Assembly: GCA_965262715.1 (NCBI GenBank)
Contig: OZ253553.1
Location: 800,001 to 864,000 of the forward strand
DNA from: Bdellovibrionales bacterium
GTDB taxonomy: Bacteria > Bdellovibrionota > Bdellovibrionia > Bdellovibrionales > JAUICD01
Length of the DNA: 64,000 nucleotides
Reading direction: 5' to 3'
A model generated the notes under the pieces. The model had not been told where the DNA came from and did not search any database. It saw nothing but the letters and a program-made list of their open reading frames with translations. Below are positions 3,218 to 50,940 of this stretch, in pieces (position 1 is the stretch's first letter; every line of letters begins with the position of its first letter). The translations under genes and the position numbers were made by a program.

Positions 3218-3612
3218 GATTATCTTGTATAACATAACTTGTTCATTTCTGATAGTGTAAAAGGCAATAAACATAACATTTTGTAAAAATAACAAAAGAC
3301 TGTGAAATTTTTACATGGTTAGCTGTTTTTCCAAAGATGGCTTTGCCTCTGATGATTTTCACTATCAGAAAATAGGTAATGCTTAGAAAAAATAGTCATT
3401 TTTGGGAGAAAGATACTCTCTGTTTTTTTACACAATGATACCATGTTTTATGATTTCAAACACAGCCTACTGACTGCTTTGACTGCCGGATTCCAGAACA
3501 AGGAAGGCCTAATTAGTTATAGGTTAAATTATAAGATTGATAATCTTAAAAAGAGTAAAAAAAATTAATCGTAAAAGTTAACTGCTTAAGATATTACGAA
3601 CCGATTTATTAC

Positions 3613-5127: not shown

Positions 5128-5715
5128 AATAACTCCTTTTTATTTTTTTTCGACTTAAATATAGTTATTAAGTTATATTAATAGTCCATCATAATAATAA
5201 GTGTATAAATAAGGTTCGGTTGGAACTTCTTATAACATGAGAGAAAAATTGGATTTTATTGATAATTTTTCTTTAATTTGGAACATATTTAAGAAATTTG
5301 AACTTTAAACTAAAATAATCTATATTATAACTCTTAAAATGATTCAAATTGAGATAATAGAAAGTTTTTTATAAAAATACTTGATTTTTTTAAAAAGTAA
5401 GGTTACTATATTAATATAAAGCAAAGGTTAATATTATAATTAATTTCTGTACGTATCCTCCTAAGGCTTTCCGCCTTTTAAATAGCACGTCAAAAATACT
5501 TTCTTTTGTGTGTAAAAGCTCACTTAAAAATATGGTGTGATTTGTGTATGACTTTATCACCTAATCATATAAGTAAAGAGAGTTTTATGTAAAGGGATTG
5601 TTGGGTCTATTTAAGTAAACAGAAGATACAAACAAAAAGACTCTGGCAATATGGTTTAGGTATTTATTAATAGCTGCTCATAGGGCAGTTTAATCTAAAG
5701 TGTAAGGAGTTTATC

Positions 5716-5919
5716 ATGTTAAAGAAGTTAAATAAAAAGGTTAAAAACTTAGCTGTAAGAATTTGGAAAGATGAGTCAGCACAAGGTATGACAGAATATA
5801 TATTATTAGTTGTTGCTTTAGTTGTTGTTTTAACATTTTTTAAAGGTCAATTCGACTCAACAATTCGAGATGCAATAACTGGAATGACTGACAAAATCAA
5901 TGTTTTCATAGGTGGTTAA
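5716..5919 (+). CDS. flp: Flp family type IV (Tad) pilin
   Basis: Basic leader, DESAQGMTEYILLV Flp motif followed by hydrophobic helix; AAGGAG RBS. Confidence 0.9.
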   Translation: MLKKLNKKVKNLAVRIWKDESAQGMTEYILLVVALVVVLTFFKGQFDSTIRDAITGMTDKINVFIGG

Positions 5920-6027
5920 GGTTTAGATTTATCATCTCAGCTTATGAAACATAAAAACAACTTGAATTTACTCATATCATAAAGATTCAATTTGATACAT
6001 CAAAGGTCATGCATATCACAGATTTGG

Positions 6028-6060
6028 AAAGGCAAAGCAGGTAAGCTTTGCCTTTTTTTT
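6028..6060 (+). terminator. Rho-independent terminator after flp
   Basis: AAAGGCAAAGC-aggtaa-GCTTTGCCTTT followed by a T tract. Confidence 0.8.
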
Positions 6061-6179
6061 ATAGATTTAATATCGTTTTACTTAAAAGACCGAATTGAAA
6101 TCTTTGATCTATCCAAAATTAATATTGGTTCATGACACTTTAAAGTGATTCTTAAGGGTATTAACTTATTGTTATAATT

Positions 6180-6300
6180 ATGAAAAGGAGGTATTTTGTC
6201 CGTTCCCAATTTTCTTAAGGTGAATTTTAGAGAAATTAAGAGTTCAAGTGTTCTGGCATAACTTATAAAGATAAGCACCTAGCTTATTAGTTTCTTTTAT
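6180..6300 (+). pseudogene. Decayed IS1595-family transposase 5' remnant
   Basis: MKRRYFVRSQFS* then .NFREI, aligning with MKNKYFVRSRISEKKFREI of the 15095-15277 ORF; the IS3 left end follows at 6303. Confidence 0.7.
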
Positions 6301-6302
6301 GA

Positions 6303-7619
6303 TGGTCTGTACCCCATAAACTGGAGAGTTAAGTGATAAAGTAACTCACTTGAGATTCCTGAATTTTAGCTATAAAAAGCTATAAGATCAGGAGGAAGAT
6401 CATGGGCAAAGTAAGAAGACGATTTAATGTTGAATTTAAGGAAGCTATTTGTAAATCGATGCATGAAGGCAGATCTTTGTTAGAGATTTGCCGGGAGCAT
6501 CAACTTCATCGCCAAACAGTCTTAGAGTGGTTTAAGAAGTATCAACAAGGGACACCTTTGGGAAACCCTTCATCAAGGGAGAGATCTCTAGAGAGACAAA
6601 TATATGCTCTTCAGGCAAAGGTAGGACAGCTCAGCTTAGAAAACGAGTTTTTAAAAAAAGCCAAAAAGGAGCTTCAACAGAGGAAAAGCGTAGGATCGTC
6701 GGTAATCACTGGAAAGAATTTGGATCAATTTCAAAAACGTGTAAAGCGTTAGGGTTACCTTTAAGTAGCTACTATTACAAGAGAAAGATTTCACAGCAAG
6801 AGCGAGAGCAAAGGGATTTTGATTTGAAAGAGCAGATTGAGAGGATACAGTGTAAATACCCGATGTATGGAATACGTCGTATTCAATTGGAACTTGAGCA
6901 AGAGAAGAGTATTAAAGCCAACCACAAGAGGATTGCTCGCATTATGCGGAAATACGGTTTAAAGGCTTTGATTTACAAAGGTTTTAAGGTTTCAACCACG
7001 GATTCTAAACATTCAAATCGAGTTTATCCGAATTTAACTTTTGGCATTGAAGTGAATAGACCCAACCAGCTTTGGGTAACAGATATCACATACATTAGGA
7101 TTCAAGATGGTTTTGTTTTTTTAGCAGTGATTTTAGATATTTTTTCAAGGAAGATTGTAGGGTGGGCTATTTCTAGAGAGATCAACACAGAGCTTTGTTT
7201 AGGAGCTTTAGAGATGAGTTTAGAGCAGAGATCAGATACTAAAGGATGTATTCATCATAGTGATCAAGGTGTGCAATACACCAGTAAAGATTATACCTAC
7301 AAGCTTAAAGAAAAAGGCTTTAAGATCAGTATGTCGAGAAAAGCCAATTGTTGGGATAATGCATTTGTTGAATCTTTCTTTAGCTCTTTAAAACGAGAAG
7401 AGGTTCATCTGTGTGAATATAAAACTTTTGAAGATGTATTAAGAAGTATTCCAAAGTTTATCGAAGGTATGTATAATAAAAAAAGGCGACATTCTTCATT
7501 AGGTTACTTATCACCTAATGAATTTGAAGCTAAATGGAAAACAGGAGAATTAACAACAATGGGAATCTCAGCAGTGAGTAAAATATGGAACGGATCCTCC
7601 AAATAAAGGGTACACCTCA
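6303..7619 (+). mobile_element. IS3-family insertion sequence, apparently complete
   Basis: TG...CA ends with imperfect IR (TGGTCTGTACCCCATAAACTGGAG / rc TGAGGTGTACCCTTTATTTGGAG); orfA HTH and orfB DDE. Confidence 0.92.
6402..7606 (+). CDS. IS3 transposase OrfAB (OrfA 6402-6752; OrfB fused via -1 frameshift)
   Basis: OrfB WVTDITY, HHSDQGVQY, NAFVESFF motifs; A7G slippery site 6653-6660; -1 frame open (KSQKGAST...CKALGLPLSSYYY) into the 6824 ORF. Confidence 0.9.
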
Positions 7620-7848
7620 CTTCCTACTTGAATCCACCTAATAACAATGGGTTACTTTTTATTTTTATCTTCCATATCTAAAAAATCAAAACAACCTGCT
7701 TTTAATAAGTTATCTAAAGCTTCTTTAGCATTACTGAATATCTCCTTATCATTACTTTTTAAGTCAACTCCTAAGCAGTTTTTATTTTATTTAAAGGCAC
7801 CAAGCTCCTTCTGTTGCTTCTAATACAACAAATTTTTTAAATGCATCT

Positions 7849-8400
7849 TTATTTTATAAATTTATCTAAAAATGTTTTTGCCTTCTTCTTTAAAACATTT
7901 GTGCTTTTGTTAAGGAGTTGATCTCTAGCTTTTGGAACATCACCTCTTAGAGCGTTTTCAATAATTGTCTTTCGTTTTTTAGGCTCAAATTGATTGCGAT
8001 GGATTTTTTCTTTTATTTTACTTAACTTTTCTATTTTACAATTTAAGATACATTGAAGATCTTGTGTTTTATATAAAGCAAAATCTTTTCCATTACAAAC
8101 GACAAAAAGAGTAATATTTAAATTCAAAGCATAAGATCTTGCTTGGGCCATTATTTTTTTGTTTGAGATATTTTTAGTAGAGTCTTTAGCCTCAATGACA
8201 AATCTTTTTTTTCTATTAACCAATATAACATAATCAGCAAAGCATTTTTTGGGATCTCCACGACCAGCCTGAATATCTACTGGAAATTCTCTTTGAATAT
8301 TACTATCTTTATAGCCTAATTTTTTTAAGATTGCGTCAATCTTTACTCTTACATCTGCTTCTTTCATAATTCCCTCATCATCTAATATAATATCCTTCAA
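7849..8400 (-). CDS. Stand-alone type I restriction HsdR N-terminal (PD-(D/E)XK) nuclease-domain protein
   Basis: EADVR..IL..LGY, ADYV, VIEAK, QARSYA, CNG motifs. Confidence 0.8.
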   Translation of the reverse strand: MKDIILDDEGIMKEADVRVKIDAILKKLGYKDSNIQREFPVDIQAGRGDPKKCFADYVILVNRKKRFVIEAKDSTKNISNKKIMAQARSYALNLNITLFVVCNGKDFALYKTQDLQCILNCKIEKLSKIKEKIHRNQFEPKKRKTIIENALRGDVPKARDQLLNKSTNVLKKKAKTFLDKFIK

Positions 8401-8431
8401 ATATAATAGTCGTACCTATGGCAAGAAAAAG

Positions 8432-8647
8432 ATGAATAGTCAAACAGTGGATCACAAAAAAGAGTTAAAAACCATTGAGACCATCAAAAACCTTTATATT
8501 AAAGGCATCAATCCAAATACTATAGCTAAGGTATTAAGCACTATGAAAATACCTACTAAACAGCATAAAAAAGAGTGGCATCATCACACAATTATCAATC
8601 TTCTTAAAAGAGAAAATCTTTACAAACAAGTAAAATCAACAGCTTAG
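8432..8647 (+). CDS. Serine-recombinase 'Recombinase' DNA-binding domain fragment
   Basis: LY..G....IA..L....IPT.....W....I..LL pattern; no catalytic domain upstream. Confidence 0.6.
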   Translation: MNSQTVDHKKELKTIETIKNLYIKGINPNTIAKVLSTMKIPTKQHKKEWHHHTIINLLKRENLYKQVKSTA

Positions 8648-8656
8648 GAGGAAATC

Positions 8657-8830
8657 ATGGAAACATTCATTAAAATTATTATAAATACATCATTGTTATT
8701 TGGATCAGGTTATTGTGCTAAAAAGCTTTTATTTGATGTTGAAAAAATGGCTACTAACAGGATAGGAAAAGGACTTTCACCATCAGAAAGCTTTGCGAGA
8801 AAACTCACTGACACAAAGTTATCTTTCTAA
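8657..8830 (+). CDS. Small hypothetical protein (57 aa; not in ORF track)
   Basis: AGGAGG RBS, METFIKIIINTSLLFGSGYCAKKLL...KLSF*. Confidence 0.55.
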   Translation: METFIKIIINTSLLFGSGYCAKKLLFDVEKMATNRIGKGLSPSESFARKLTDTKLSF

Positions 8831-9087
8831 TGATTTAAAGAACAAAGGCACTAATATCATAATATCATGAGTAATATAATAAATTTTGTTTTTTATTACT
8901 TTTTTATAAGAAGTTCTATTGACTCTAAAAAAAAGTTACCAATATATATTATATATTGAAGTCCATAGCTTTTAAGGAAAGTGAATTTTCCCAAAAAAGA
9001 CTACTTAACAAAGAAATAATTTGCCGGAATTGGAAAAACTTTGGGAACAATACAAAGCAAAGGTTCTATCTCTAAACTAAACATCCC

Positions 9088-9300
9088 TATAGAATCCTAT
9101 CCCCTGATGGTAGGAACGAGAAGGCTCTATACACTAGCACTCCTTAAATCCCTCTCAGAAAGAATAAAGAGGACATAGGAAAAGGATTTGACCTCATTGT
9201 TGAGACAAATACACGAGGAATCATTGCTGCAGGACTTGTTGCTGGGTTAGAGATTGAAAAGATGATGGAGATTTATAGAGATAAAGGTAGAAGAATAAAG
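9088..9300 (+). pseudogene. Frameshifted patatin-like phospholipase (CBASS CapV-like) remnant
   Basis: Stitched frames read YRILSPDG.GTRRLYTLALL...DIGKGFDLIVETNTRGIIAAGLVAG...IYRDKG, i.e. decayed DGGG and GTSTG motifs. Confidence 0.65.
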
Positions 9301-9393
9301 GATTGGAGTTTTGGAGTTCGCCCTTTAGAATTTTCCATGAATGCTCAATTTCTCAGATTCAATTTTATGTGTGATTTTTAGCAAAAAAACTAG

Positions 9394-12300
9394 GTGAATA
9401 TGGGAAAAATTGATCCAAAGTCGACAGGAGGAGAAGGCTTCGATTTTGAAGACAAGATTGGTGCATATTTCTTATCTTTTCTCTTAGTAGGCAAAAACCC
9501 ATTCTCCTTATTGTCCTTGGGGCGATTTACAACTATAAAATTTCAGAGGAAAGTAGATGGTTGGGAGTTTGACGACATTATCCTTGAGTTCGATTCAGGT
9601 AACCTAGAAAAGAAAATTGCGTTTTCCGTGAAAAGCAATTCTCAAATCACAGCCAATAAGTTTCCACCTGATCTCGTGGAATCAATCTGGAAGCAGTTTT
9701 GTAAGACAGAGGGAAATCCTTTTAGGTCCAAACATGACTACTTGGGGCTTGTAACTTCAGGTACATCCACCGCGGCGATTGAATCATATCGCAAGCTTCG
9801 CAACTTTGCCTCAAACCACAAAGGAATGGATATGGAAATACATATCAAACAGCCAGAATTTACAAGTCAACAGGTTCGAAACCTGTTCGATAGTTTTGTA
9901 AAACCATCAGTAGTAGACTGCAACCAAAACATACAACGAGCCGAGATTATTGAACGATTAATTCACTTTGACGTAAATCTTGATGATCCAACGTCCCCTT
10001 ATTTGCAAAATGCATTTGGCAATTTAGCTTCGGCACTAGTCAGTGGTGAAGCGAACAACCTTTGGGTAAAACTTCAGCACATGGTAAAGACATCTCGTAC
10101 AGTTTCCGGTGAGATTACCTTTTCTATTCTTATTAAAGAACTAAATAATTCATTCAAAATTAAAGGCCACTACGATTTAGATTCCGATTTAGAAAAGCTT
10201 AAAGAGTTTCAAGAAACTGAAATTGGAAAGATAAAGTCTACAATTGGAAGTAGCTTTTCAGTTGAAAGAAAAATGGATTTTTCTGAACAGTTTAAAAAAG
10301 AACAAGTCAATGCCCTCATAGGAGAATCGGGAATTGGAAAATCTGTTCTCCTCAAACAATGGGTTTGTAAAGCTGGGAAACCCGTCATTTGGTTGCCGTA
10401 TTCAATCTTCAATGCCAGAACACTTGTCGAAGTTAATACTTTGTTAGGGATAAAGAATAATTTGTTTGACATCCTTCAATACGGCCCTAGTGAACAGATT
10501 ATTATAATTGATGCCGTTGATAGACTTACAAGTACGGAAAATCGCGAATTACTAAAGTCCTTCCTAGTAAAGTTCCAAAAAATTTCAAGAAATCGCCACC
10601 TCTGTATTATTAGCTCACAAGACCAGATTTGGAGTACACTAGTTGGAAACCTCTCAACACAGGAATTGCTTTTCAATGTAATTTCAGCACCAATGTTTGA
10701 GGAAGATGAACTAAGGATAGTTGAAAATAGATTCCCCAATCTCACAGGCATACTTAAAGAAAGGTCAACAAGAGAGATACTAAAAAATCTGAAATATCTC
10801 GATATTGCAATTCAAATGGCAGAGCGATCTTCACTCGATACTAGTAGATCCATTAGTGAACCTGTACTAATACGTGGATTTTGGAGTTTGCTCAGCGATG
10901 GCGGAGCCAACCAAAAGCAAGTTCTCCTAACAAAGTTGGCCATTGATCAAGCTGATAAGAATGACTTCCTTTCACCTTTTAAAGATTTATCTACTCCTGA
11001 ATCTCAGTTAGTGGACATTTTGGTACGAGAAGGGATTCTTAAAATCCAAGATGGTTACATACGATTCTCACACGATCTATATGGCGATTGGATACGACAA
11101 AGATTTTTACTCTCCCAGAGAACCAAAACAATTCATGAGATTCTTAAACGGAAAAATAACGTTTACTGGCAACAATCAATAAGACTTACGTCATTAGAGA
11201 TTCTAGAGTCAGATGGGTTCGATAGTTGGAAAAAAGAAATAGAGTCATTAAATGAAAGGGGAGATGATGTTCTAGTTGACCTATTTCTTGATATTGCTAT
11301 TACTCCTCTTAATCAAAGATTTATCCTAAAAACTATTAAGGAGTTACTTTTTTCTGACAACTTTAAGGTATTGGATCGATTTCTCAAACGATTTCTTGCG
11401 TATGCTACAGTTCCCAATCCTCAAATTATGAGTATGAGAGAAGAGTTTGAGCTGGATGAACTGACGGCAGCCCAAGTCGATCGAGTCCCTTTGTATACCT
11501 ATTGGCCAAATCTCTTGCAATTTTTGGCAGAAAATTTTGAGAATACAATTAGAGGCAGAGTTCAAATGTCTCAAATCGCTGAGAAATGGTTAAAATTTAC
11601 TCCCAAAGACTTCCCATTTCGTAAAGAGGCCGCAAAAATAGCACTTAATTGTACAAAATGGATTTTTGAGTTTAAAAGAACACCTTATAGCTACCTCGAA
11701 GACGACGCAAACAAGAAGTGCTACCAAGCACTATTGGCTGCATACCCCGAATTACCTAACGAAATAGAAGATCTTTGCCTCAAACTTATTGGCTTGCGTG
11801 AGGATGGTATTGAACGTCCTCCACTGACAGTAATTCCATCAAATTCAAAAGTTTCTCCGCCAATTAATACATTTTCGATCACTCGTAGAAGAATAGAGAA
11901 AAAAGTTCTTCCTAATGGTCCTCAATTTAAGAAAGATCGTGAATTTAGGGATGTATGTCTGGAAGGGCAACCTCTTTGTTATCTAATACAATTTAATCCG
12001 TCGTTAGCGTCTCAAGTTTTGCTTGCTTCAATAATTGATGCTCCCCAAGAATATGAGGATTTATATGATGACGGGCAAATGGATAAACAATTAGGAACAG
12101 ATTATACTCAGGAGTTCTATCCACCGCTTTATTCAAAAGGTCCTTTCATATATTTTTTTAAAACTGCACCTCAACAGGCTCTTGACGCCTTGATTTCCCT
12201 GATTTCACTTGTAACCGACCAATGGGCAGAGAGGGAAAAGAAGAGAGGAAATAACGTATTTGGATTCGAGATCGAAATCAACGGAAATAAAAAATTTTGG

Positions 12301-14619
12301 AGAGGAGATGCACAGGTATTTTTATGGGCCATGGATACGACACATTGTCCTAATGTAGTTGTAGCCTTTCTAATGGCTTTAGAAAAATGGTTTTATGAAA
12401 AGATTGACGCAAAAGAAAATATCGATTCTTGGATTGATCAAATTGTAGAAAAAAGTGATTCACTGGCATTACTTGGCATCTTGGTCTCTATCGCTAAGTA
12501 TAGTCCAAAACTATTTCTGGAAAAGCTTCAATTTTTATCAGTGCTTCCCTATGTAATATGGTGGGACCAACAGTTTTTGTCTCAGAATCGCTTATCAAAT
12601 GTTTATATGATTTCATGGTCTCTACAAGATCGTTTTATGACCAATTTGGCCGTAAAGTGGTTTGAGATGGTACATCGAAAAATCTCTCTCGAACAGTGGG
12701 CAATATATTTACTTTTAAATATTCCCAAAATGCAAAATTTTTTCGCAACTGCAAGGTTTAGTTGGGAAAAAAAATTACAGAAACAACCTAATCGACAACT
12801 AGAGGCACTCTTATGTAAGTTCAACCCGGACAACTATAAAGTTGGCCAACTACCGGATGGCACTCAAGTATGGAACTATACTGTTCCTTCATATCTTCTA
12901 GAGAAACACAAGAAAAGATTTGAAGAGGATGATGCTCAGATGAACATGTTTATGTTCCCAATGAATGTGGAAAAGCTTCTTGATGCCGATTCATTTTCAA
13001 GAGATGAGTTTGCAGTGTTAGTATCAACTATGGAGAATATTAATAATACAGTCAAAAATAAATCCAATGATCCAATATTAGCAACTCCAAAGGATTGTAA
13101 TCTTGCAATAGATGGACTAACGCTTATTGCTGTGAAAAGAAAAGTTATCTCGGTCGATGCTACAACCTTGAGTACAGCAAAGGAAAAGATCGAAAGGGCA
13201 TTAGAAAACCTTTGGAACGATCATGGAGTTACAGGTTACCCTTTTTCAGACCAGAAATATGATATAATTCTGGCAAAAGTAATTGGTCAATTAGCTGAAG
13301 GAAATGAAGAAGATATTTGGATAAGAACACAAGTAGCACGTTTGGTTTGTGGCCCACGGGCAAACTCGATAGCTGCTCTTATTAAGAGTGCAGTATCAGC
13401 CAAAGTTGAACATGCATTTCTCTTAGAGGTTATGGCACTTTTTTTTGAATATTCAAAAATTTGCACTGCTTGGCATAATGTTGATTGTGCTGAAAAGTAT
13501 CCTTATACCAACCAAAAATCGAATTTTATTAAAGCCTTCCTTTGCCGGAATAGTTTTCTCAGAACTAAAGTGTTTCGTGCTTACACACTTGAAGATAGAA
13601 GAAGCTTATTTAGAAATGAAGTTTTTCTTCTTGTTAAAAAGTTTATCAATGACAATTCTATTAAGGCATGGCCAGACTTGGGTTTTAACCCTTATGATTA
13701 CGAATTTACACATGGGCTTAAACTACCTAGAATTAAGAGAGATGTAATTCATCTAGAAGATTTCACTCAAGCTGCTTCATATCTTCCTCCAATAGAGCAG
13801 TGGGATGGTAACTTGTTAGCAGGATGGATTAACTTTTGCACTTCTAGCATGGACCAAATCTCTAGAAGGCTTTCAAAATCAATTGAAGAGTACGGAGATG
13901 TCAAGGATACGCCATATGAGCAGGATAGATGGATAATCAATGAGTTTGCTACTACCTATTATTGGCATGATGACGCAAGACTTGATCAGTCCTTGAGGAC
14001 ATTCTTTGAAGTTGGTGCAGATGGACATTACTGGATTGATGGTTTCGGCAGAAAGTTTTTCATATTAGGTCTTAAAAACACTAATCGCTGGGAAGAACTA
14101 AAATTCAAAATGCAGAAGATATTTGATCTTGCCCTTTCCGTAAAACAGCTACAATCTTCTCGAAGGTCATGGGATGCTGACAAAATTTGGTGTTCCTTGG
14201 TAGGATTGGATGGCTTCACCATTCAATATTTGCCAGACGACTCAAAGCCCTTAATAACAGATATCTTACCTCTTTATAAACGCCTAATTGAAACTCGAAG
14301 TGGCTCCAACGAGTGCCTTAGTCGATTTATCGCTTTATTGTGCAAAGGAGCTGCCGTGAATATTCGCTTAAAAGGACTTGCGATTGTAGCATCCGAACTC
14401 AAAGGGATTGATTATACCGACTACTGGCAAAAACGTTATATTTCAACATATTCATGCTTTTTAACTACTCTCTGGCACGAAAACCAAAATGAGTTGCGAA
14501 GTGATGAGATCGCCTTGGTTAACTTTCAGCAGATTCTCAACGGGTTAATTTCAGTTCAAGATCCTACAGCACTCGAGTTAGCGTCTCAGATCAACTCCTC
14601 GCGACTATCATCGGAATAA
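9394..14619 (+). CDS. Nuclease-STAND/NACHT-like ATPase with large C-terminal sensor (Avs/AVAST-like antiphage protein)
   Basis: N-terminal STGGEGFDFE...DDI...SVK PD-(D/E)XK-like motif; Walker A GESGIGKS; Walker B IIIIDAVD; >1100-aa C-terminal region; visibly more GC-rich than its neighbours. Confidence 0.75.
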   Translation: MNMGKIDPKSTGGEGFDFEDKIGAYFLSFLLVGKNPFSLLSLGRFTTIKFQRKVDGWEFDDIILEFDSGNLEKKIAFSVKSNSQITANKFPPDLVESIWKQFCKTEGNPFRSKHDYLGLVTSGTSTAAIESYRKLRNFASNHKGMDMEIHIKQPEFTSQQVRNLFDSFVKPSVVDCNQNIQRAEIIERLIHFDVNLDDPTSPYLQNAFGNLASALVSGEANNLWVKLQHMVKTSRTVSGEITFSILIKELNNSFKIKGHYDLDSDLEKLKEFQETEIGKIKSTIGSSFSVERKMDFSEQFKKEQVNALIGESGIGKSVLLKQWVCKAGKPVIWLPYSIFNARTLVEVNTLLGIKNNLFDILQYGPSEQIIIIDAVDRLTSTENRELLKSFLVKFQKISRNRHLCIISSQDQIWSTLVGNLSTQELLFNVISAPMFEEDELRIVENRFPNLTGILKERSTREILKNLKYLDIAIQMAERSSLDTSRSISEPVLIRGFWSLLSDGGANQKQVLLTKLAIDQADKNDFLSPFKDLSTPESQLVDILVREGILKIQDGYIRFSHDLYGDWIRQRFLLSQRTKTIHEILKRKNNVYWQQSIRLTSLEILESDGFDSWKKEIESLNERGDDVLVDLFLDIAITPLNQRFILKTIKELLFSDNFKVLDRFLKRFLAYATVPNPQIMSMREEFELDELTAAQVDRVPLYTYWPNLLQFLAENFENTIRGRVQMSQIAEKWLKFTPKDFPFRKEAAKIALNCTKWIFEFKRTPYSYLEDDANKKCYQALLAAYPELPNEIEDLCLKLIGLREDGIERPPLTVIPSNSKVSPPINTFSITRRRIEKKVLPNGPQFKKDREFRDVCLEGQPLCYLIQFNPSLASQVLLASIIDAPQEYEDLYDDGQMDKQLGTDYTQEFYPPLYSKGPFIYFFKTAPQQALDALISLISLVTDQWAEREKKRGNNVFGFEIEINGNKKFWRGDAQVFLWAMDTTHCPNVVVAFLMALEKWFYEKIDAKENIDSWIDQIVEKSDSLALLGILVSIAKYSPKLFLEKLQFLSVLPYVIWWDQQFLSQNRLSNVYMISWSLQDRFMTNLAVKWFEMVHRKISLEQWAIYLLLNIPKMQNFFATARFSWEKKLQKQPNRQLEALLCKFNPDNYKVGQLPDGTQVWNYTVPSYLLEKHKKRFEEDDAQMNMFMFPMNVEKLLDADSFSRDEFAVLVSTMENINNTVKNKSNDPILATPKDCNLAIDGLTLIAVKRKVISVDATTLSTAKEKIERALENLWNDHGVTGYPFSDQKYDIILAKVIGQLAEGNEEDIWIRTQVARLVCGPRANSIAALIKSAVSAKVEHAFLLEVMALFFEYSKICTAWHNVDCAEKYPYTNQKSNFIKAFLCRNSFLRTKVFRAYTLEDRRSLFRNEVFLLVKKFINDNSIKAWPDLGFNPYDYEFTHGLKLPRIKRDVIHLEDFTQAASYLPPIEQWDGNLLAGWINFCTSSMDQISRRLSKSIEEYGDVKDTPYEQDRWIINEFATTYYWHDDARLDQSLRTFFEVGADGHYWIDGFGRKFFILGLKNTNRWEELKFKMQKIFDLALSVKQLQSSRRSWDADKIWCSLVGLDGFTIQYLPDDSKPLITDILPLYKRLIETRSGSNECLSRFIALLCKGAAVNIRLKGLAIVASELKGIDYTDYWQKRYISTYSCFLTTLWHENQNELRSDEIALVNFQQILNGLISVQDPTALELASQINSSRLSSE

Positions 14620-15044
14620 TTTACGAATAGAGAATTATTTTAAATTTGAAAAGTTTTTGTCTTTTTTTCTCATTTATGGCTATTCCATTACTATCTTTTT
14701 TCCATTGAATTATATCAATCATTTTTGTCCTCCTGAACGTGGAGCGTATCCCATTTTTACTGTTTTGACAGCTATCCAAAACTTTAGAATATTGTTTGTT
14801 CATCTATTTGAGATAGTTAGTAGAAAGAGGTAAATAATTAGAGCTACACCCATCCTTGCTTTTCAAACTCTTCATAATAAGGTTTCATATATCTATCATA
14901 AATATTTTTTAAAAATGGATTACTTTTATATTTAGTATCTAAAGTGGATTCTTTAAATATCTTCAATAGATAATCTTTAAAAATGAAACATTTTTCAAAT
15001 GGTGATTTTGGTCTGTACCCATAAACTGGAGAGTTAAGTGATAA

Positions 15045-15324
15045 AATAACTTTCATCAATTTCAATTTCTCCTTTTGAAAAAACACTCTCTTTTTCACAA
15101 AACGCAGCTATTCTTAATCTTATTTTTTTTTAAGATGCGATTGATAGTATTGATGTTTAATTTTGTAAGATGAGCTATTTGTATAGCAGTTAAATCTACT
15201 GAAAAATAACGAATAATTTCTCTAAATTTCTTCTCAGAAATTCGAGAACGAACAAAATACTTGTTTTTCATAGTCATAACAATAAGTTAAACCCTCTGAA
15301 AGTCAACTTAAGTAGTTATGAACC
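15045..15324 (-). pseudogene. IS1595 (ISXO2-like) transposase 5' fragment with left end
   Basis: MKNKYFVRSRISEKKFREII...; after a frameshift in an A run it reads IRLRIAAFCEKESVFSKGEIEIDESYF (first DDE Asp motif), truncated at the IS3 IRL; end GGTTCATAACTACTTAA at 15324. Confidence 0.8.
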
Positions 15325-15566
15325 AAAAAATAAATCAAAAGATGAATGCTTACGCCTCGCATTAAAAGTAATATTTATCTTGAACTAAAAGTTAAAAGAT
15401 AGTATAAGTGACTCTTCTTAAAAAGAGTGAAAGATAATTATAAGGGAGGGGTCAAATATAAGTTTAGGAGGTAATTAAAATGAGTAAAGAAGATAAAAAA
15501 GCCATTTTAATAGGTGTAGGCATAGGTATCGGAATAGGTGTAGTTGCTGTTGCTACGGCCCCGGCT
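15255..15566. repeat. 312-bp direct repeat, left copy, flanking IS1634
   Basis: Identical by eye to 17523-17834; abuts the IS ends exactly. Confidence 0.95.
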
Positions 15567-17522
15567 CCTGAGTTTGACAGTTGCGAAAATAAAGTTAAGT
15601 TATTTTAGTTAGTTACAGTGGATGTGTGATTTTGTACCACTACATTTTGATTTTGTGGTAGAGATTTAAGAGATTGTTTGTAGGTCTAAGTAGATTCTAC
15701 TTTAAGTTGTTTTGATGGGATCTTTGCTCCTATAGCTTTAAATACATCAGCATTGTTACCGTTAATATCTGTTCTGATCCAAAGTGTCTTATCCTTTATC
15801 CTCACAGGTATAGCTCGTACTTCTTTCAGCTTTGACATAGCTTCTGCCACACTCAATGGCCTTGACTTTATTCTCTTGTCTGTAATTGCTTTATCTTTTA
15901 ATGTGATGTTTCTCTGATGTAACTTCTTTGAAAAATAAGCCTCACATAAGTAAGATAAAAAACACACAACTAAATGTCCTAAGATCCTCTTATCTGTCCA
16001 GTGGAACATAGGACGTGTCTTTAATGTACCTTTCAATTCTCTAAATGAATTCTCTACCTTCCATAATTGCTTATAGTTCGTTATAATCTCTTCAGAACTT
16101 AAACTATCTGTATTTGTAATGATTCCAAAAAAACCATCTGTCCTCTCTGATTGTTCTATGGCTGACTTATTTAAAGTAGGCTTGCCTTTACTCTTAGGAT
16201 GAATAATATACTTCTTATAATTGCTATTAGATACAAAATCCTTTGTGCTTGATGACGATTTTGAAAGCTTATCTTCTAACTTAGATAGAATATCTTCTCT
16301 TACTTTCTTATCTCGTTCTGCTCTCTTTCTTGACCAGGTAATTATACAACGATTATCATTATAACTCGTCTCGTATATAGCTAAATTTTCATTTATAAAT
16401 TTAAAATTCTTTAAATTGTATATCTCTGCATGACGATCCTTTAATAAACCTAGCTTTAATCCTACTATAAATTCATCTCCCTTTGCTTTTACAGATTGTA
16501 AATTCTCATTAGAAAATAAACCTCTATCTCCTACTAATATAAATCTTCTGATCTTAAACTTCTTTTTTAGTTTCTCCATAACTGAAGGTATGGTTTTACC
16601 TTCAAAGGTATTTCCAGGATAAACATCAAAGCCTAAGGGCATACCTTCTCTATCTACTAAAAGTCCAAATACCACCTGGGTACAATCACTCCTCTTCTCT
16701 TTGCTATAACCAAATCTTCGAAGATTATCTAAATCCTCTCGGGTACTCTCAAATCTCAATGTCGTTAAATCATACAAAATAACATCACACTCATTGAAAA
16801 AACTTAACTGAGACTTACCTTGTGTATAAAGAGTCTTCTCTATATCTTCCTTATGCTTACTTAGAATATCTAAAGAACGATAAATGTCTTGAAGATGAAG
16901 CTCCTCTTCTAAAAAATCAGGGTAAAATAACTTCTGCCAGTGTGAAAATACTTTAAGCTTAGAACATGGCTCTACAAAACGGCTTATAACCAATGTAAAA
17001 ATAATCTTAACAAAATCAAATTGTACTTTAGGGTGCTTTTGTTTTAAATCTGTTAATAATTCATAGAGATTTAATTGTTTGAAAATAGCATCTATTATAA
17101 GTAAGGGACCTAATATAAAAGTGTCTTTAACATCAATCTCTTTTAATAACTTACTAGCAGGAATTATCTCTAACTCTTTAGATAATACTTCTAGAAGCTT
17201 CTTCAAGTTAACTTCCTTATCCGCGGCTTTACCTAAAGACATTAGAATCCTTTGCTTCACTTGAGAACCTAATCTGTAGCTCTCAACAAGATGATAATAT
17301 ATGTCTCCTCTCGGATTTCTTGTAGACCTTATGAACATAAAAATACATTACAAGAAAAATATAAAAAATAAAAGAAAATAAGGTATATGACGCGTAGTTT
17401 ATGATAAATAAGTACACTACACTTTTTGACCAAAATACAAACACAATAACCGCTAATGACTATAAATACAACATTCCTTGAAAAAAATATCACGAAAATT
17501 CAAATTAAGTGTCAAACTCAGG
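15567..17522 (-). mobile_element. IS1634-family insertion sequence, copy 1
   Basis: Terminal IR CCTGAGTTTGACA / TGTCAAACTCAGG; single transposase; long flanking direct repeat. Confidence 0.93.
15686..17338 (-). CDS. IS1634-family DDE transposase
   Basis: YDLTTLRFE, GYSKEKRSD, GDRG, YKQLWKVENSFRELK, RPMFHW motifs. Confidence 0.95.
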   Translation of the reverse strand: MFIRSTRNPRGDIYYHLVESYRLGSQVKQRILMSLGKAADKEVNLKKLLEVLSKELEIIPASKLLKEIDVKDTFILGPLLIIDAIFKQLNLYELLTDLKQKHPKVQFDFVKIIFTLVISRFVEPCSKLKVFSHWQKLFYPDFLEEELHLQDIYRSLDILSKHKEDIEKTLYTQGKSQLSFFNECDVILYDLTTLRFESTREDLDNLRRFGYSKEKRSDCTQVVFGLLVDREGMPLGFDVYPGNTFEGKTIPSVMEKLKKKFKIRRFILVGDRGLFSNENLQSVKAKGDEFIVGLKLGLLKDRHAEIYNLKNFKFINENLAIYETSYNDNRCIITWSRKRAERDKKVREDILSKLEDKLSKSSSSTKDFVSNSNYKKYIIHPKSKGKPTLNKSAIEQSERTDGFFGIITNTDSLSSEEIITNYKQLWKVENSFRELKGTLKTRPMFHWTDKRILGHLVVCFLSYLCEAYFSKKLHQRNITLKDKAITDKRIKSRPLSVAEAMSKLKEVRAIPVRIKDKTLWIRTDINGNNADVFKAIGAKIPSKQLKVEST

Positions 17523-17834
17523 AAATACTTGTTTTTCATAGTCATAACAATAAGTTAAACCCTCTGAAAGTCAACTTAAGTAGTTATGAACCAAAAAATA
17601 AATCAAAAGATGAATGCTTACGCCTCGCATTAAAAGTAATATTTATCTTGAACTAAAAGTTAAAAGATAGTATAAGTGACTCTTCTTAAAAAGAGTGAAA
17701 GATAATTATAAGGGAGGGGTCAAATATAAGTTTAGGAGGTAATTAAAATGAGTAAAGAAGATAAAAAAGCCATTTTAATAGGTGTAGGCATAGGTATCGG
17801 AATAGGTGTAGTTGCTGTTGCTACGGCCCCGGCT
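17523..17834. repeat. 312-bp direct repeat, right copy
   Basis: Identical by eye to 15255-15566. Confidence 0.95.
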
Positions 17835-17927
17835 TGGTTACCTGCTGCACAAGCGCATGCTTTGCAAGCTGCTGCTGTAGAAAGTGCAAAATATTTATTA
17901 GCAAGTAGTGTCGTTAGTGCTGTTTAA
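17748..17927 (+). CDS. 59-aa Gly/Ala-rich hydrophobic peptide (not in ORF track)
   Basis: AGGAGG RBS; MSKEDKKAILIGVGIGIGIGVVAVATAPAWLPAAQAHALQAAAVESAKYLLASSVVSAV*; truncated IS-fused copy at 15480-15608. Confidence 0.65.
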   Translation: MSKEDKKAILIGVGIGIGIGVVAVATAPAWLPAAQAHALQAAAVESAKYLLASSVVSAV

Positions 17928-18336
17928 AAAAAGACTTTACATTTTGTGTTTTTAATATTGTGAAATCTTTCTTTAGCTCTCTAAAACGAGAAGAGGTTCA
18001 TCTGTGTGAATATAAATCTTTTGAAGATGTATTAAAAAGTATTCCAAAGTTTATTGAAGGAATGTATAACAAAAAAAGGCGACATTCTTCATTAGGTTAC
18101 TTATCACCTAATGAGTTTGAAGCTAAATGGAAAACAGGAGAATTAACAACAATGGGAATCTCAGCAGTGAGTAAATTATGGAACGGATCCTCCAAATAAA
18201 GGGTACACCTCATGAAGTTATAATGACCAATGATATCTAATATAGCTTGAACTGGTTTCACTCAAAATAAACCAACCTCTGGTTGCTTTCTGGCAATGAT
18301 CCTGACGGCTAATGCCCTCAGCAAATAGATCATTGC

Positions 18337-18615
18337 CTAGAAAATCTGTTTATTTTGAGTAAGAAGATACTCTTCATTTTTTAATACCATGTTAGGGAAA
18401 CTATTTAAGTTATATCTAAGTGACCCAAGACTAATCCTATAGAACTTTCTGCGTTCTTTAGCAGTTGGTTTAGCACTGCCTTCAGCTAAGTTAAGCACAA
18501 TACTTAGAGAAGCCCTATGGAACTGGTTTTTAAGGGGTTCTCTTAGATTTAACTTTCTAGAGTTACGATAAAAATTAATAGCTAACTGATAAGTTTTGAA
18601 TTTTTGCATCGTCAT
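18337..18615 (-). pseudogene. Four-helix-bundle (23S rRNA IVS-like) protein, C-terminus replaced by repeat sequence
   Basis: AGGAGG RBS before MTMQ; YQLA..FY, LKNQFHRASLSIVLNLAEGSAK....RRKFYRISLGSLR, then runs into the dispersed hairpin repeat. Confidence 0.75.
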
Positions 18616-19340
18616 AAAAATTTCCTCCTTTATAAAACCCGCCAGGGCTTGGGAGGAAATTTTTAAGGTGCAATAATTCAAATTATGGGTGCCGGACATT
18701 TTGATTCCGGGTACTGTTTGCCCGATTGCCAGATCCCGGAATAAAGAGGGTTTAAAGTGTCATGAACCTTAATATTTATACAATAATGCTAATGGATTTT
18801 ATAACTTTTGAGGGCTTTGTTGCACAAATATCAATTTTACTTTGTGTGCTAGAGATTTATATGCCTCCTTAAATCTTTCTAAAACAAAGCCATTTTTGAT
18901 GATAAAAACTTTTAAACTGTTTCATATTGATCCTGGATTCTGACAAACAGGCAATCGGACAACGGTTCCCGGGATCAGCTTGCCGGAATGCTTGACTCCC
19001 AGACCGTCAGAAGGGTGCATTTATATATATATATTGAGACATAGATAACAGTTTAAGATGATGCCTGATACTGATGCCAGTTTGCCCGACTGCCAGATCT
19101 CGGAATAATATGTACTGTACATTTTGAGACATTTTAATATCGAGTATTTAACCTATATTCTCTTTAAAGAAAGCTATAGATAAAGTTTAACTTTATCCCT
19201 CGAAATAACCGATAAATTAAGTACATTCATAATGTTTGTTCATATTAGATTAAACTATTTTTTGTTTAAGCGATGTGAACTGATTTTTTGATGTAAAATA
19301 TATGAATACTTATGAATTTAAATAAAGAGGAGTGTGATAT

Positions 19341-19559
19341 ATGACTATAGAAATGATAATCTTAATAGTCATTACAACATTTGTAGCATTTGGTCCTGAT
19401 GGTGAAAGTGGTATTTTTAAGACACCTTTAAATACTTTTAAAGAGGCAGGTTCTTATCTTGGAGGTCGAATTGAAAGGCAATTAGATACAGCTGCAGGGT
19501 TTCAAGAAAAAGCTCTTGATACTGCAAATCCGGGCAATCGGCTTAATTGGTCTAAATGA
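19341..19559 (+). CDS. Small pilin-like Tad-locus protein
   Basis: MTIEMIILIVITTF pilin-like N-terminus (E in hydrophobic helix); first gene of the tad cluster right of the island. Confidence 0.6.
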   Translation: MTIEMIILIVITTFVAFGPDGESGIFKTPLNTFKEAGSYLGGRIERQLDTAAGFQEKALDTANPGNRLNWSK

Positions 19560-19640
19560 AATGAAAGTAAGGAATATTAAGTTATTCATGGTTTTGGGTA
19601 AACTTATAAGATCTCATGAGTTTTATTTTATAGGATTATT

Positions 19641-20162
19641 ATGAATATGAATGAACTATTTATCTCTATATTACTTCCTTCTTTGATCCTGATTATAGGA
19701 GTTGTGGATGATATTTACTTTCGTAAATTTCATAATTGGTTATTTTTATCTCTTTTTGCATTTACTTTATGCTTTTCGATTTTCTTTAATGGATTTGATG
19801 GATTTGTAAAAGGAGCTTATGGACTCGCTCTTGTTTTTGCTCTTACCCTCCCTCTTGTTCTATTAGGCATTTTGGGAGGTGGAGATATGAAGTTACTAAT
19901 GGTTTTTGCTTTAGCCACAAATACACAAGCCGTTTTTAATGTTATTCTTATCTCTTTTTTATGGGGCGGTCTTATGGGCTTTATGTATGTTATTATCTCA
20001 GGTCAATTTACCGAGCTTTTATACAATTTAAAAGGATTGCTTTTTTATCAGATTAAACCTTTAAAGTCATCATTACATGTGATCCCATACACTGTTCCTC
20101 TGTGTTTGGCGTGGTTCACTTACCTTTCTCTAGAGTCTTATGGAGTGCAAATATGGTTTTAA
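19641..20162 (+). CDS. cpaA: Prepilin peptidase, A24 family (CpaA/TadV)
   Basis: Multi-TM; DD..RK..N and GGGDMKL motifs. Confidence 0.88.
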   Translation: MNMNELFISILLPSLILIIGVVDDIYFRKFHNWLFLSLFAFTLCFSIFFNGFDGFVKGAYGLALVFALTLPLVLLGILGGGDMKLLMVFALATNTQAVFNVILISFLWGGLMGFMYVIISGQFTELLYNLKGLLFYQIKPLKSSLHVIPYTVPLCLAWFTYLSLESYGVQIWF

Positions 20163-20221
20163 ATTTTATAAAACAATATTTTATGAATACATTATTATCT
20201 TTAAAGATAAAAAATTGTTTG

Positions 20222-20521
20222 ATGAAAAAAAATAACTACTACTCATTTTCAAATAAGAAAGGACAAGCTACAGTAGAGATGATTTTGTTATTATCTTTAT
20301 TTCTCCTTTTTTCAGCTACTATATCAACAGTTCTTAAAGATTCAGAAGTTGCAAAAACAATTATTGGCAAACCATGGAAGGTAGTCAGTGGAATGATAGA
20401 AAGTGGAACTTGGCAAGAAAACCCGGGTACCGATATACATCCTTTGCATCCTGCTGTGGATCCTGCTGTGGATTCTGCTGTGGATTCTGTAAAGAGGCGC
20501 TTATCTGTTGAGGGTGAGTGA
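20222..20521 (+). CDS. TadE-like pseudopilin
   Basis: NKKGQATVEMILL processing motif; likely start 20222 or 20183 rather than 20102. Confidence 0.75.
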   Translation: MKKNNYYSFSNKKGQATVEMILLLSLFLLFSATISTVLKDSEVAKTIIGKPWKVVSGMIESGTWQENPGTDIHPLHPAVDPAVDSAVDSVKRRLSVEGE

Positions 20522-20530
20522 GGTGATTCG

Positions 20531-21100
20531 ATGAAGTTTTTAAAAGATGAAAAAGGAGTTTTAGCTTTTGATTTTTTATTTGGATTAATGATTATGACAG
20601 GTTTTTTTATATTGGTCATCATGCTGAATTTTACACTCTCTGTTATAGAATCGATACAATATATAGCCTTTGCCACTTCTAGAACTTACTATGCAGCTGA
20701 TGAGAATGTTACTAAATCAGAAGAGGCTGCTGAAAAAAAGTACAATGATTTAAAAGAGGAAGGAATGTTAAAATCCTTACTTAGAGAAAAATGGTTTAAA
20801 ATGTCACCAAAACCGGTTTTTAAAAAAGATGGATCAACTAAGGGAGTACGTTTAGATGTTACAGCTAAGGTGTTGTCTTTTAATCTACCTTTTTTCTTAG
20901 GCAATACAGGAGAAGCTAATTCTTTTAAGACAAATGTGAACTCTTATATAGGAAGAGAGCCATCTATGCAGGATTGTATAGATTATAATGAAGTAATTAA
21001 GGATGAAATATTAAATCTTGATTCCTCATATCAGGATTCTACGATTTCTGGCCATATGAAGGCAGCACCTATAATGGCAGCAGGAGATAATGGATGTTAA
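20531..21100 (+). CDS. TadE/F-like pseudopilin
   Basis: DEKGVLAFDFLF plus hydrophobic helix, AFATSR, two C-terminal Cys; operonic. Confidence 0.7.
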   Translation: MKFLKDEKGVLAFDFLFGLMIMTGFFILVIMLNFTLSVIESIQYIAFATSRTYYAADENVTKSEEAAEKKYNDLKEEGMLKSLLREKWFKMSPKPVFKKDGSTKGVRLDVTAKVLSFNLPFFLGNTGEANSFKTNVNSYIGREPSMQDCIDYNEVIKDEILNLDSSYQDSTISGHMKAAPIMAAGDNGC

Positions 21101-21594
21101 AGACATGTATTTCAAAAAAATATTTTAAAAAGCAAAAAGGGATGGCCTCTATTGAGGCTGTGGTTTCTATTATACTTTACCTTGCATTGTTGAGTTTTAG
21201 CTTGGGATCTTTTGGTGTAGTCCACTCGGGGATTGTTAATTCTATTGCAGCACGTAATTATGCTTTTGATACCTTCAATAACCGAACATATCTTAAATAT
21301 CATAGAGATACCCTTTTTGGTGGTGGTCTTCACTCTCATAAGAAAAATGGATTTAGGTTGCACACTATTACATCAGAAACAAGTCCGCCAAATAATGAAG
21401 ATTTTATAGCTACAAAAAGATATATTGCTTTTGCAAAAGTACATAATGATAAAGAGAAAGGAAATAATAGTGATGAACATGAAAAAATGGTAGAAGATGC
21501 AAAAGATGGTGTCAATGAAGGTTATTCATTCAACCCTGTATGGGTCAAAGCAGCTTATGGCATTTGTTTAAATGCTAATTGTAAACCTGAATAG
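21094..21594 (+). CDS. TadE-like pseudopilin
   Basis: QKGMASIEAVV plus hydrophobic helix, AARNYAF. Confidence 0.75.
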   Translation: MLKTCISKKYFKKQKGMASIEAVVSIILYLALLSFSLGSFGVVHSGIVNSIAARNYAFDTFNNRTYLKYHRDTLFGGGLHSHKKNGFRLHTITSETSPPNNEDFIATKRYIAFAKVHNDKEKGNNSDEHEKMVEDAKDGVNEGYSFNPVWVKAAYGICLNANCKPE

Positions 21595-21608
21595 ATAAGG
21601 AGTACAAA

Positions 21609-22433
21609 ATGAACTCAAATCCAACAAGAACATTATTTTTATCTTTAGGTGCTGGTATTTTTGCGATGTTTCTTGTGTACAGTTATTCACAGGAGAAGAA
21701 AGCGGAATATGACAAAAAATATGGTACAACTAAACGTGTTGTAGTGGCCACAACAGAGATTGTAGAAATGCAAACTATAGATGATACAATGGTGGAATAC
21801 AAAGAAGTTCCTATTAGTTTTGTACAACCAGGAGTTGTCACCGACCCAGAAGAAGCGATCAATACTATTGCTGCTACAACTATTTTAAAGGGTGAACAAA
21901 TTCTAAAAACAAAACTCTTAGCCCCAGGGCCTATTACAGGTCTTTCTAGTCAAATTGCTCCTAATAAAAGAGCTGTTACTATTTCTGTGGATGATGTGAG
22001 AGGAGTGGCAAAGCTTTTAAGACCAGGTGATCGTGTTGATATACTGGCATCTTTAACCAGTGGTGATAGCAGAAACCGTAAGGTTGAGGTTAAAACTATT
22101 ATGCAAGATATTGTGATCTTAGCTACAGGCGTGAATATCACAAATAATCTTCCTCGTTCTCCAGAGTTGGAAAATGGAAATTTGATTGGTTTTAGAAATC
22201 TTAATGGAGATACCTCCTTTAGAACAGTGACTTTAGAAGTTAGCCCTAAACAGGCGCAAGATCTCGTGTTTTTGCAGGTGGCATCACCTGGAGGTATCTA
22301 CCTTATATTACGTAATGGGATTGATCGTCAAAACTCAAGGCCTCCAAAAAGTGATATGAATTCTTTATTGGGAAGAGTGGCTACGCAGGCTTATAAACGT
22401 CCACTTGAATCTTTAAAGAAAAGGAATAATTGA
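21609..22433 (+). CDS. cpaB: Flp pilus assembly protein CpaB
   Basis: N-terminal TM, SAF-like domain, RAVTISVD..RGVAKLLRPGDRVDI. Confidence 0.92.
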   Translation: MNSNPTRTLFLSLGAGIFAMFLVYSYSQEKKAEYDKKYGTTKRVVVATTEIVEMQTIDDTMVEYKEVPISFVQPGVVTDPEEAINTIAATTILKGEQILKTKLLAPGPITGLSSQIAPNKRAVTISVDDVRGVAKLLRPGDRVDILASLTSGDSRNRKVEVKTIMQDIVILATGVNITNNLPRSPELENGNLIGFRNLNGDTSFRTVTLEVSPKQAQDLVFLQVASPGGIYLILRNGIDRQNSRPPKSDMNSLLGRVATQAYKRPLESLKKRNN

Positions 22434-22439
22434 TTATTT

Positions 22440-36104: not shown

Positions 36105-36375
36105 CTAGAGAAACCATCTTAAAAAATAAGCAGTTATCTATATCTCAATATGTACACACATTGTGCTATGTGCTACAAGGGATTTTGGCAGTCAGTATTT
36201 TGTTGACAGAGATACATCCCGTAGGGATACAGATCCCGTAGGGATACAGATCCCGTAGGGATATACATCCCGTAGTGTTATCGTCACGCTGACTGCCCAA
36301 AAACAAACAGATGCTCACCTCAAGAGGTTCGCCTCGAGAGGCTTGCCTCAAGAGGTTGGTTTATTTTGAGTGAAA
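36105..36375 (+). repeat. Family A hairpin repeat with 4 internal GATAC(AG)ATCCCGTAG units
   Basis: TTTTGGCAGTCAGT...GCTGACTGCCCAAAAA; 3x CCTCRAGAGG. Confidence 0.8.
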
Positions 36376-48577: not shown

Positions 48578-48748
48578 TAATTTCTTTCAGTATGGGCATT
48601 CATCATGTTGTGGAAGATCGTCGGTAATGTTAAACCATAAACATTTATCTTTAACAAAAATATGCTTTTCTGGTTGAATACCAATTTCATTATCAAATAG
48701 GCCTGCACTCATAAATATTCTATCAGGCTTTTTATGATAAAAGTAAAT
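48503..48748. repeat. 246-bp direct repeat, left copy, flanking IS1634
   Basis: Identical by eye to 50695-50940. Confidence 0.95.
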
Positions 48749-50694: not shown

Positions 50695-50940
50695 AGTGAT
50701 GAATATATGACACCTCGTGAAATAAAGACTTTAATTAAGAAATCAATAAAGTTAACTATTGAGAGATAGTAATTTCTTTCAGTATGGGCATTCATCATGT
50801 TGTGGAAGATCGTCGGTAATGTTAAACCATAAACATTTATCTTTAACAAAAATATGCTTTTCTGGTTGAATACCAATTTCATTATCAAATAGGCCTGCAC
50901 TCATAAATATTCTATCAGGCTTTTTATGATAAAAGTAAAT
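50695..50940. repeat. 246-bp direct repeat, right copy
   Basis: Identical by eye to 48503-48748. Confidence 0.95.

Follow-up and report, generated by a model that had tools for sequence, protein, structure and literature searches.

An IS1595-derived shell around an IS3-bounded transposon carrying a predicted anti-phage gene at the Tad pilus locus of a Bdellovibrionales bacterium

The DNA analysed here, referred to as the window, is a stretch of 64,000 nucleotides from a Bdellovibrionales bacterium whose genome, a 2.94-Mb single contig with 33.6% G+C, is designated G000 (G000:C1:800001-864000); positions are those of the window unless preceded by G000. Its tight adherence (Tad) pilus locus begins with an intact flp1-like pilin gene (5716..5919, + strand; Pfam Flp1_like E 4.6e-6, below the cut-off) and continues on the same strand (19341..24014) with a flp2-like gene (19341), cpaA (19641), three probable Tad accessory or minor pilin genes, cpaB (21609) and cpaC (22440), all with open frames. 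Between flp1 and flp2 lies a 12.6-kb structure, outside of which the pilus genes remain, and which is a real, well-bounded nest of already known element kinds: an insertion sequence (IS) cassette derived from IS1595, an IS3-bounded transposon within it and an IS1634-family element within the latter. The genome is crowded with mobile DNA, including 10 complete copies of one IS3, 21 two-ended IS1634-type copies and a palindromic repeat at 313 loci. It was compared with G001, a sister species of the same genus (90% complete), with the further relatives G002, G003 and G004, and with assembled contigs from four of six candidate sequencing runs, X1, X2, X3 and X6 among them. Runs X2 and X3 are probably the source sample of the assembly, so that their agreement with it is not independent, while the X1 and X6 contigs leave the cargo uncovered and the flanks barely covered and are thus uninformative on the cargo.

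The outer element ends in two 18-bp inverted repeats (IRs), the left at 6127..6144 (+) and the right at 18751..18768 (−), which are exact reverse complements of each other, and it is flanked by an exact 8-bp target duplication, TTAATATT, at 6119..6126 and 18769..18776. These perfect ends had been noticed in an earlier sequence-only reading and are confirmed, the 18-mer being found in exactly these two copies in G000. Aligned with the ends of an intact IS1595, the cassette IR shares the first 12 bases and 14/17 overall, and its left copy is 17/17 identical to the left IRs of L077 and L106, both of them full-length IS1595 elements. A genome-wide search gave 94 end-like motifs, forming 35 inward-facing pairs within 40 kb; five of these pairs have an exact 8-bp flank match and none a match with one mismatch, against a chance expectation of 0.065 exact matches calculated from distant pairs (4/2155 exact). 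The five are the 12,642-bp element described here, three sister cassettes of 543 bp (G000:320592-321134), 982 bp (G000:922773-923754) and 646 bp (G000:2560605), whose duplications differ, and an intact 899-bp IS1595. By its target duplication each IR at the Tad locus pairs solely with the other, and the relatives lacking the island do not retain the two ends: searches of G001 and G002 gave no end motif, and those present in G003 and G004 are few and lie far from cpaA. The X2 and X3 contigs run without a difference across both outer junctions (3000-6271 and 18635-21500), as well as across 7593-8551 and 8704-15076 in the interior.

Just inside the left IR, the IS1595 left-end interior (6145..6238, +) contains a decayed transposase start (ATG at 6180), which aligns with the intact IS1595 and other left ends and is 76% identical over 91 nt to a further IS1595 end at 15324, as the sequence-only reading had held. 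Its prediction that removal of 6303-18215 would leave a cassette of about 730 bp was equally accurate: the shell measures 729 bp, and its alignments with the 982-bp sister (90% over 550 bp) and the 543-bp sister (88% over 361 bp) continue across the junction. The passenger is the four-helix-bundle gene ascribed to this cassette, but it is a pseudogene in three pieces, all on the − strand: the 5' piece (18416..18612; PF05635/TIGR02436, 43.7 bits for TIGR02436), 98% identical over 65 aa to an intact copy at G000:2560799; a middle piece (18213..18253) that includes the right IS3 target duplication, TGA, at 18213-18215; and the 3' piece (6244..6302), in which the TGA at 6300-6302 of the + strand is the left IS3 target duplication. 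The first two are separated at codon 66 by a dispersed palindromic repeat of about 160 bp (18255..18415; fold z -7.5; 313 merged BLAST loci in G000), which cuts the gene at the same codon at G000:277622 and in the 982-bp sister. Of the other two sisters, that of 543 bp retains the repeat together with the 3' piece, and only that of 646 bp has the gene intact. There is no functional transposase of its own in the element, which has only the decayed start at 6180 and a truncated inner fragment, and no intact IS1595 transposase was found within 6127-18768, which sets it apart from transporter ISs (tIS), defined by their own transposase plus passengers. It resembles mobile insertion cassettes (MICs) in its IS1595-type IRs, 8-bp duplication, lack of a transposase and occurrence of the family at several insertion sites, but not in having an intact passenger gene, the four-helix gene being broken here. 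By these structural marks, together with the short sister versions and the intact IS1595 elsewhere in G000, the shell is classed, as had been proposed, as a non-autonomous IS1595 derivative.

The dead four-helix gene is interrupted by an 11.9-kb insertion with IS3-family sequence at both ends. Its left arm is a complete element (6303..7619, +; orfA 6402-6752, orfB 6824-7606; NF033516, 289.9 bits) with one difference in 1317 bp from the copy at G000:869567-870883, and its right arm is a 255-bp right-end fragment of a diverged variant (17958..18212, +) that was found nowhere else, comparison with 11 other right ends giving 10 to 18 differences in every case. Both arms have the same orientation and TGA lies directly outside each, while the sister cassettes at G000:320592-321134 and 922773-923754 have a single TGA and are continuous across the IS3 site (4 and 5 mismatches in 90 nt). 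Neither arm alone has a 3-bp duplication but the pair does, and 4/9 other complete IS3 copies have one of their own (one possibly of 4 bp). One 3-bp duplication around a full IS3 and a right-end fragment points to a single IS3-driven arrival. On this architecture, that is, two arms around cargo, one of them complete, and a duplication outside the pair that is single-copy in two paralogues, the interior is a single composite transposon, bounded by IS3 and flanked by a TGA duplication of its own.

Within this composite, an inner IS3 left end of 43 bp with an IR short of one base (15009..15051, +) would be the left end of an older mini-IS3, and 15009-18212 as a whole can be read as an old mini-IS3 that is damaged at its left end. 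A 3-bp match between the flank of the 15009 end and the IS3 right flank at G000:184270 was taken as chance, since no continuous gene results. The inner end meets an IS1595 left end with a truncated transposase (15043..15324, −; 67% over 54 aa to the intact transposase) at a 9-bp microhomology, 15043-15051. The mini-IS3 is itself entered by an IS1634-family element (15567..17522, −; transposase 15686-17338; NF033559, 370 bits; 2 differences from the G000:294211 copy over 1956 bp), which made a 312-bp direct repeat whose left copy lies at 15255..15566 and whose right copy, at 17523..17834, holds the IS1595 left end a second time (at 17592). Direct repeats of 50-312 bp flank 11 of the 21 IS1634-type copies in G000. 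At G000:869231-872506, an IS3 near-identical to that of the window lies within an IS1634 near-identical to that of the window, both families having been recently active, and 48503-50940 of the window holds another IS1634, diverged (86% to that of the element) and with a direct repeat of 246 bp.

The cargo comprises a 183-aa gene for a lone HsdR_N domain, the N-terminal domain of restriction enzymes (7849..8400, −; PF13588 E 1.4e-9), a module on the + strand (8401..8830) made of a recombinase-domain tail (8432-8647; PF07508 E 3.7e-7) and a 57-aa open reading frame (ORF; 8657-8830), a gene for a 1741-aa nuclease-STAND NTPase (9394..14619, +) and a hydrophobic 59-aa ORF without a family (17748..17927, +). 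The HsdR_N gene, the NTPase gene and the 59-aa ORF are single-copy in G000, while the 57-aa ORF occurs at 18 loci, many beside toxin-antitoxin, restriction-type or other defence-like genes as judged from their frames (two confirmed by family scan) and six within 70 kb after the tmRNA gene. This recurrence of the recombinase tail with the 57-aa ORF suggests that the cargo is probably a fragment of an island family of G000.

The 1741-aa protein is a predicted anti-phage sensor-effector resembling Avs4, which senses the phage portal protein. It has conserved nuclease-like and Walker A/B motifs, and a model of residues 1-667 built from a 27-sequence alignment (mean predicted local distance difference test score [pLDDT] 86.8) best matches Avs4 (8dgf, E 2.4e-15), followed by Avs3 (8dgc); motifs and fold match thus agree with the Avs4 order of an N-terminal nuclease followed by a STAND NTPase. 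A single-sequence fold was unusable (pLDDT 36.5) and a PDB sequence search gave no match. Among 13 scanned homologues (of 31 in all), eight matched the NCBIfam Avs4 model, all below cut-off (the best at 632 bits against 1500), and seven the PADLOC model. Homologues occur in a Bdellovibrio sp. and in a Bdellovibrionales metagenome-assembled genome, and the nearest one in a named genome (L036) shares the gene but not its surroundings. The protein is like Avs4 and Avs3 (AVAST) in its N-terminal nuclease-like domain, STAND NTPase and length of about 1700 aa, but unlike Avs4 in sharing only 14% identity, in having homologues far below the NCBIfam cut-off and in matching no Avs model itself. It likely works like an Avs yet does not pass as Avs4.

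The sequence-only reading had the element splitting the Tad locus, which is true by position, flp1 being parted from cpaA, cpaB and cpaC, but not in effect, in that all Tad frames are open and flp1 was apparently already a separate transcription unit. In 7/8 relatives fetched, flp lies just upstream of cpaA, in four of these about 40 bp before a flp2-like gene; without the element, the gap between flp1 and flp2 in G000 would be 771 bp, and in G001 flp1 is 487 kb away on the other strand. A predicted intrinsic terminator with an 11-bp stem followed by a T run (6028..6060, +; fold z -5.5, 0/200 shuffles as good) ends 58 bp before the insertion site, and a matching stem follows flp1 in G001; a consensus scanner does not list it, and consensus promoter and terminator scans were at chance level. 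Downstream of the element, a predicted FliA (sigma-28)-type promoter for flp2-cpaA (19187..19214, +) has an exact −10 box at 19209, by the consensus in PMC3627812, and identical box and spacing precede flp2 in G001. According to two studies of B. bacteriovorus (PMC5430801; 10.64898/2026.07.08.737194), FliA drives the operon from upstream of flp1, and predation requires flp1 as well as flp2. An exact box is found within about 450 nt upstream of flp1 in 6/7 relatives (0.034 expected per 450 nt), whereas in G000 and G001 it is absent there and exact upstream of flp2. The locus is thus like that of B. bacteriovorus in its order of flp1, trimmed flp2-like pilin and Tad machinery, but unlike it in having the FliA-like box before flp2 rather than flp1 and, in this genus, a hairpin after flp1. 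Because hairpin and box are common to G000 and G001, flp1 was probably uncoupled from the operon before the element arrived, and the insertion is probably neutral for the pilus. As an observation in its own right, this genus may have undergone a rewiring of its Tad locus, the box position being reversed relative to six of seven relatives (window 5266-5715 and 19187-19214; L019 and L038 in G001).

We consider it most likely, and with good confidence, that the 12.6-kb element is a 729-bp transposase-less IS1595 cassette plus an 11.9-kb IS3-bounded transposon, built in place by successive jumps. Transposition in the IS3 family is of the copy-out type and proceeds via a circle. The proposed history would be as follows: (i) an IS1595 transposase acting in trans put the cassette, whose captured four-helix-bundle gene would already have been broken by the palindromic repeat, into the AT-rich gap after the flp1 hairpin, an event that would account for the visible duplication of 8 bp; (ii) at a donor site, a fresh IS3 would have lain 7.4 kb upstream of the old mini-IS3 and, because the left IR of the latter had lost a base, the transposase would have paired the left end of the fresh element with the right end of the old one, sending the 11.9-kb unit (about 9.6 kb without IS1634 and its duplication) into the dead gene with duplication of TGA; and (iii) before or after this second step, IS1634 would have inserted and duplicated the 312 bp that are now seen on either side of it. 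A variant of the second step, in which the fresh IS3 inserted beside the old end on a circle, is equivalent. IS3 and IS1634 are younger than the cassette, since they are 99.9% identical to other copies whereas the cassette is 88-90% identical to its sisters. The predicted net effect is that the host would have gained an Avs4-like anti-phage gene at a neutral site, with flp1 and the flp2-cpa operon keeping their own signals.

Several observations weigh against this history or against its predicted effect. The empty-site joint (6126-to-18777) was not seen in the contigs of four runs, which, being contigs only, is weak evidence, and no strain with the 729-bp form at the flp1-flp2 locus was found; for lack of both, the order of the first two steps is one that we infer. 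No donor copy of the cargo was found in G000. All five elements with target duplications have perfect ones although the cassettes are about 10% diverged, which suggests that the last jump of the shell was fairly recent, and 5/9 other complete IS3 copies have no duplication, from which it follows that flank swapping by recombination occurs in G000. As for function, the 1741-aa query matched none of the Avs models of NCBIfam and PADLOC, the FliA-like box has a spacer of 17 nt where the published one is 16, and a spacer of 17 shows no enrichment across the genome (10 sites; other spacers have 5-18). A joint of 6298 to 18212 in X2 and X3 was considered as a sign of excision and rejected, because two paralogues 94-96% alike across the junction explain it.

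Among other explanations, it is unlikely that the nest was assembled elsewhere and entered the Tad gap as one 12.6-kb IS1595 unit, the cassette being a working carrier of the defence gene. An intact IS1595 transposase is present in G000, and a jump of the whole would fit the 18/18 match of the IRs and the exact duplication, as well as the fact that the two closest sisters have other bases at two IR positions, the same two at either end, which suggests that matched ends were kept (the sequence just inside is 84-87% alike); but G000 holds neither a second copy of the 12.6-kb form nor a donor scar, the other members with target duplications measure only 543-982 bp, and the intact IS1595, whose ends match at 14/17 bases, has one close (98.8%) and deleted sister. 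Very unlikely is the arrival of a lone IS3, making the TGA, followed by entry of a cargo circle through homologous recombination in the 255 bp of IS3 right-end homology. It predicts the same gross layout, and several G000 IS3 copies do have unmatched flanks, but mosaic arms would be expected, whereas the left arm equals the G000:1020563 copy over its last 255 bp and the right arm has 10 differing positions as far as base 218; with the left arm resident-type throughout and the right arm variant-type to base 218, there is no crossover mosaic, and a crossover would have to sit in the last 36 bp. We regard as highly improbable the sequence-only view of the cassette as a landing pad, that is, a hotspot gathering defence genes one by one. 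The several layers of the interior and another IS3 adjoining a related four-helix remnant at G000:2519259 speak for it, yet it is not borne out by a cargo lying wholly inside one IS3 pair with one duplication in a dead gene, by three sister cassettes devoid of defence genes and by a recombinase-tail module that links the cargo to the G000 island family rather than to the cassette. That the nest is an assembly chimera of joined repeats is barely credible, because although five repeat families meet at the locus and no single contig spans the stretch, three nested sets of target duplications are mutually consistent and contigs cross both outer and two inner junctions without differences.

As to future movement of the nest, the IS3 unit is predicted to be the likelier mover, because it has an intact transposase and intact outer ends, whereas the shell needs a transposase in trans. 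No IS3 circle joint (18212-to-6303) was seen in the contigs of the four runs. The potential helper of the shell, the intact IS1595 at G000:2850675-2851573, has 899 bp, a 228-aa transposase (NF033547, 140.9 bits; cut-off 75) and an 8-bp duplication. The 17-bp left IR of the cassette recurs in a truncated IS1595 at G000:2435882 and, among 38 metagenome matches, in two IS1595 elements of 741 bp with full-length transposase frames (L077 and L106). Two related sightings are that at G000:2434831-2435882 an IS1595 with the cassette-type IR has its transposase frame fused in-frame to an unrelated C-terminal part (338 aa), and that one depth-87 contig of run X1, from another study, shows at a joint of 15283-18752 an IS1595 left end with the exact 17-bp IR of the cassette before a transposase start. 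In each of the five IS1595 elements with target duplications, both IRs share one core variant (four variants in all) while the interiors group differently, and the ends seem to change together. It is doubtful that the IS1595 cassettes of this lineage would be live shuttles, with ends re-matched when the cognate transposase changes, and that the 12.6-kb form would be mobile and, in a predatory bacterium, bring to new sites a system that is Avs4-like and belongs to an unnamed subfamily.

IS1595 cannot be taken as a general carrier of four-helix genes, a view that was rejected: of 19 TIGR02436 matches in G000, three lie inside pairs with target duplications and two more beside one end, and G001 has 14 matches in a genome (90% complete) where neither IS1595 end motif nor transposase match was found. 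An end-like match occurs at 1/20 four-helix loci of G001 and G004. That the sister species holds these 14 genes while no IS1595 end was found in it shows the tie between the two to be secondary. In the literature, where coverage of subscription papers is limited, no IS1595 cassette with a four-helix gene was found. Elsewhere in G000, about 34 loci (e.g. 391368, 889422, 1257207) have lone IS1595-type right ends followed by short-repeat hairpins resembling the leader of the four-helix gene, and in 0/34 was a partner end with a duplication found within 3 kb.

How this nest compares with known classes can be stated layer by layer. IS3-family composites have direct-orientation IS3 arms around cargo and a 3-bp duplication outside the pair; the inner unit is like them in both respects, the duplication being matched by other G000 IS3 copies, but unlike them in that its right arm is a 255-bp end from an older variant, the left IR of which is itself damaged. 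For the shell, MICs, MITEs (miniature transposable elements with inverted repeats) and solo IRs activated in trans count as standard categories in PMC3129680, and by that text it is like MICs (e.g. the IS231-derived MIC231) and MITEs in having IS ends but no working transposase, in holding a passenger gene and in the presence of a cognate IS at another place in the genome; it is unlike MIC231 in its IS1595 ends, its broken four-helix-bundle passenger and the second transposon inside. IS1595 elements with passengers between their ends, 8-bp duplications and AT-rich targets, all features of the element described here, are represented in PMC5704250 by MTnSag1/tISSag10 and tISCpe8, which are described there as having their own transposase, 25-bp IRs and 1.7-2.0 kb, as opposed to about 60 bp of transposase and an 18-bp IR here. 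As for IS1634/IS1549, for which direct repeats of 8-514 bp are reported in PMC2266710, long and variable direct repeats are shared (312 bp here), and no difference was found.

Further features lie elsewhere in the window. A 431-bp unit that includes the palindromic dispersed repeat is present in seven identical tandem copies from 58218 to about 61100, and that repeat also adjoins 17-bp tandem repeats at 36204-36289 and a 218-bp tandem duplication at 38011-38546. Three related blocks with 32-nt internal repeats, about 1.4-1.5 kb apart, at 51416-55134 are probably paralogous repeat-protein genes, and at 128-3295 (−) a 1055-aa Clp-like AAA+ protein is encoded, with a signal-peptide-like N-terminus and a long region without a Pfam match.

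Since B. bacteriovorus requires the Tad system for predation, the sparing of the Tad genes by the insertion is of importance, and the apparent uncoupling of flp1 from its operon in this genus is a separate lead. The Avs4-like protein is a candidate for phage assays. The locus would offer a clear worked case of how a likely predatory, IS-rich bacterium may gain a defence gene, that is, by a fresh IS3 and an old IS3 end together dropping a fragment of an island into dead DNA.

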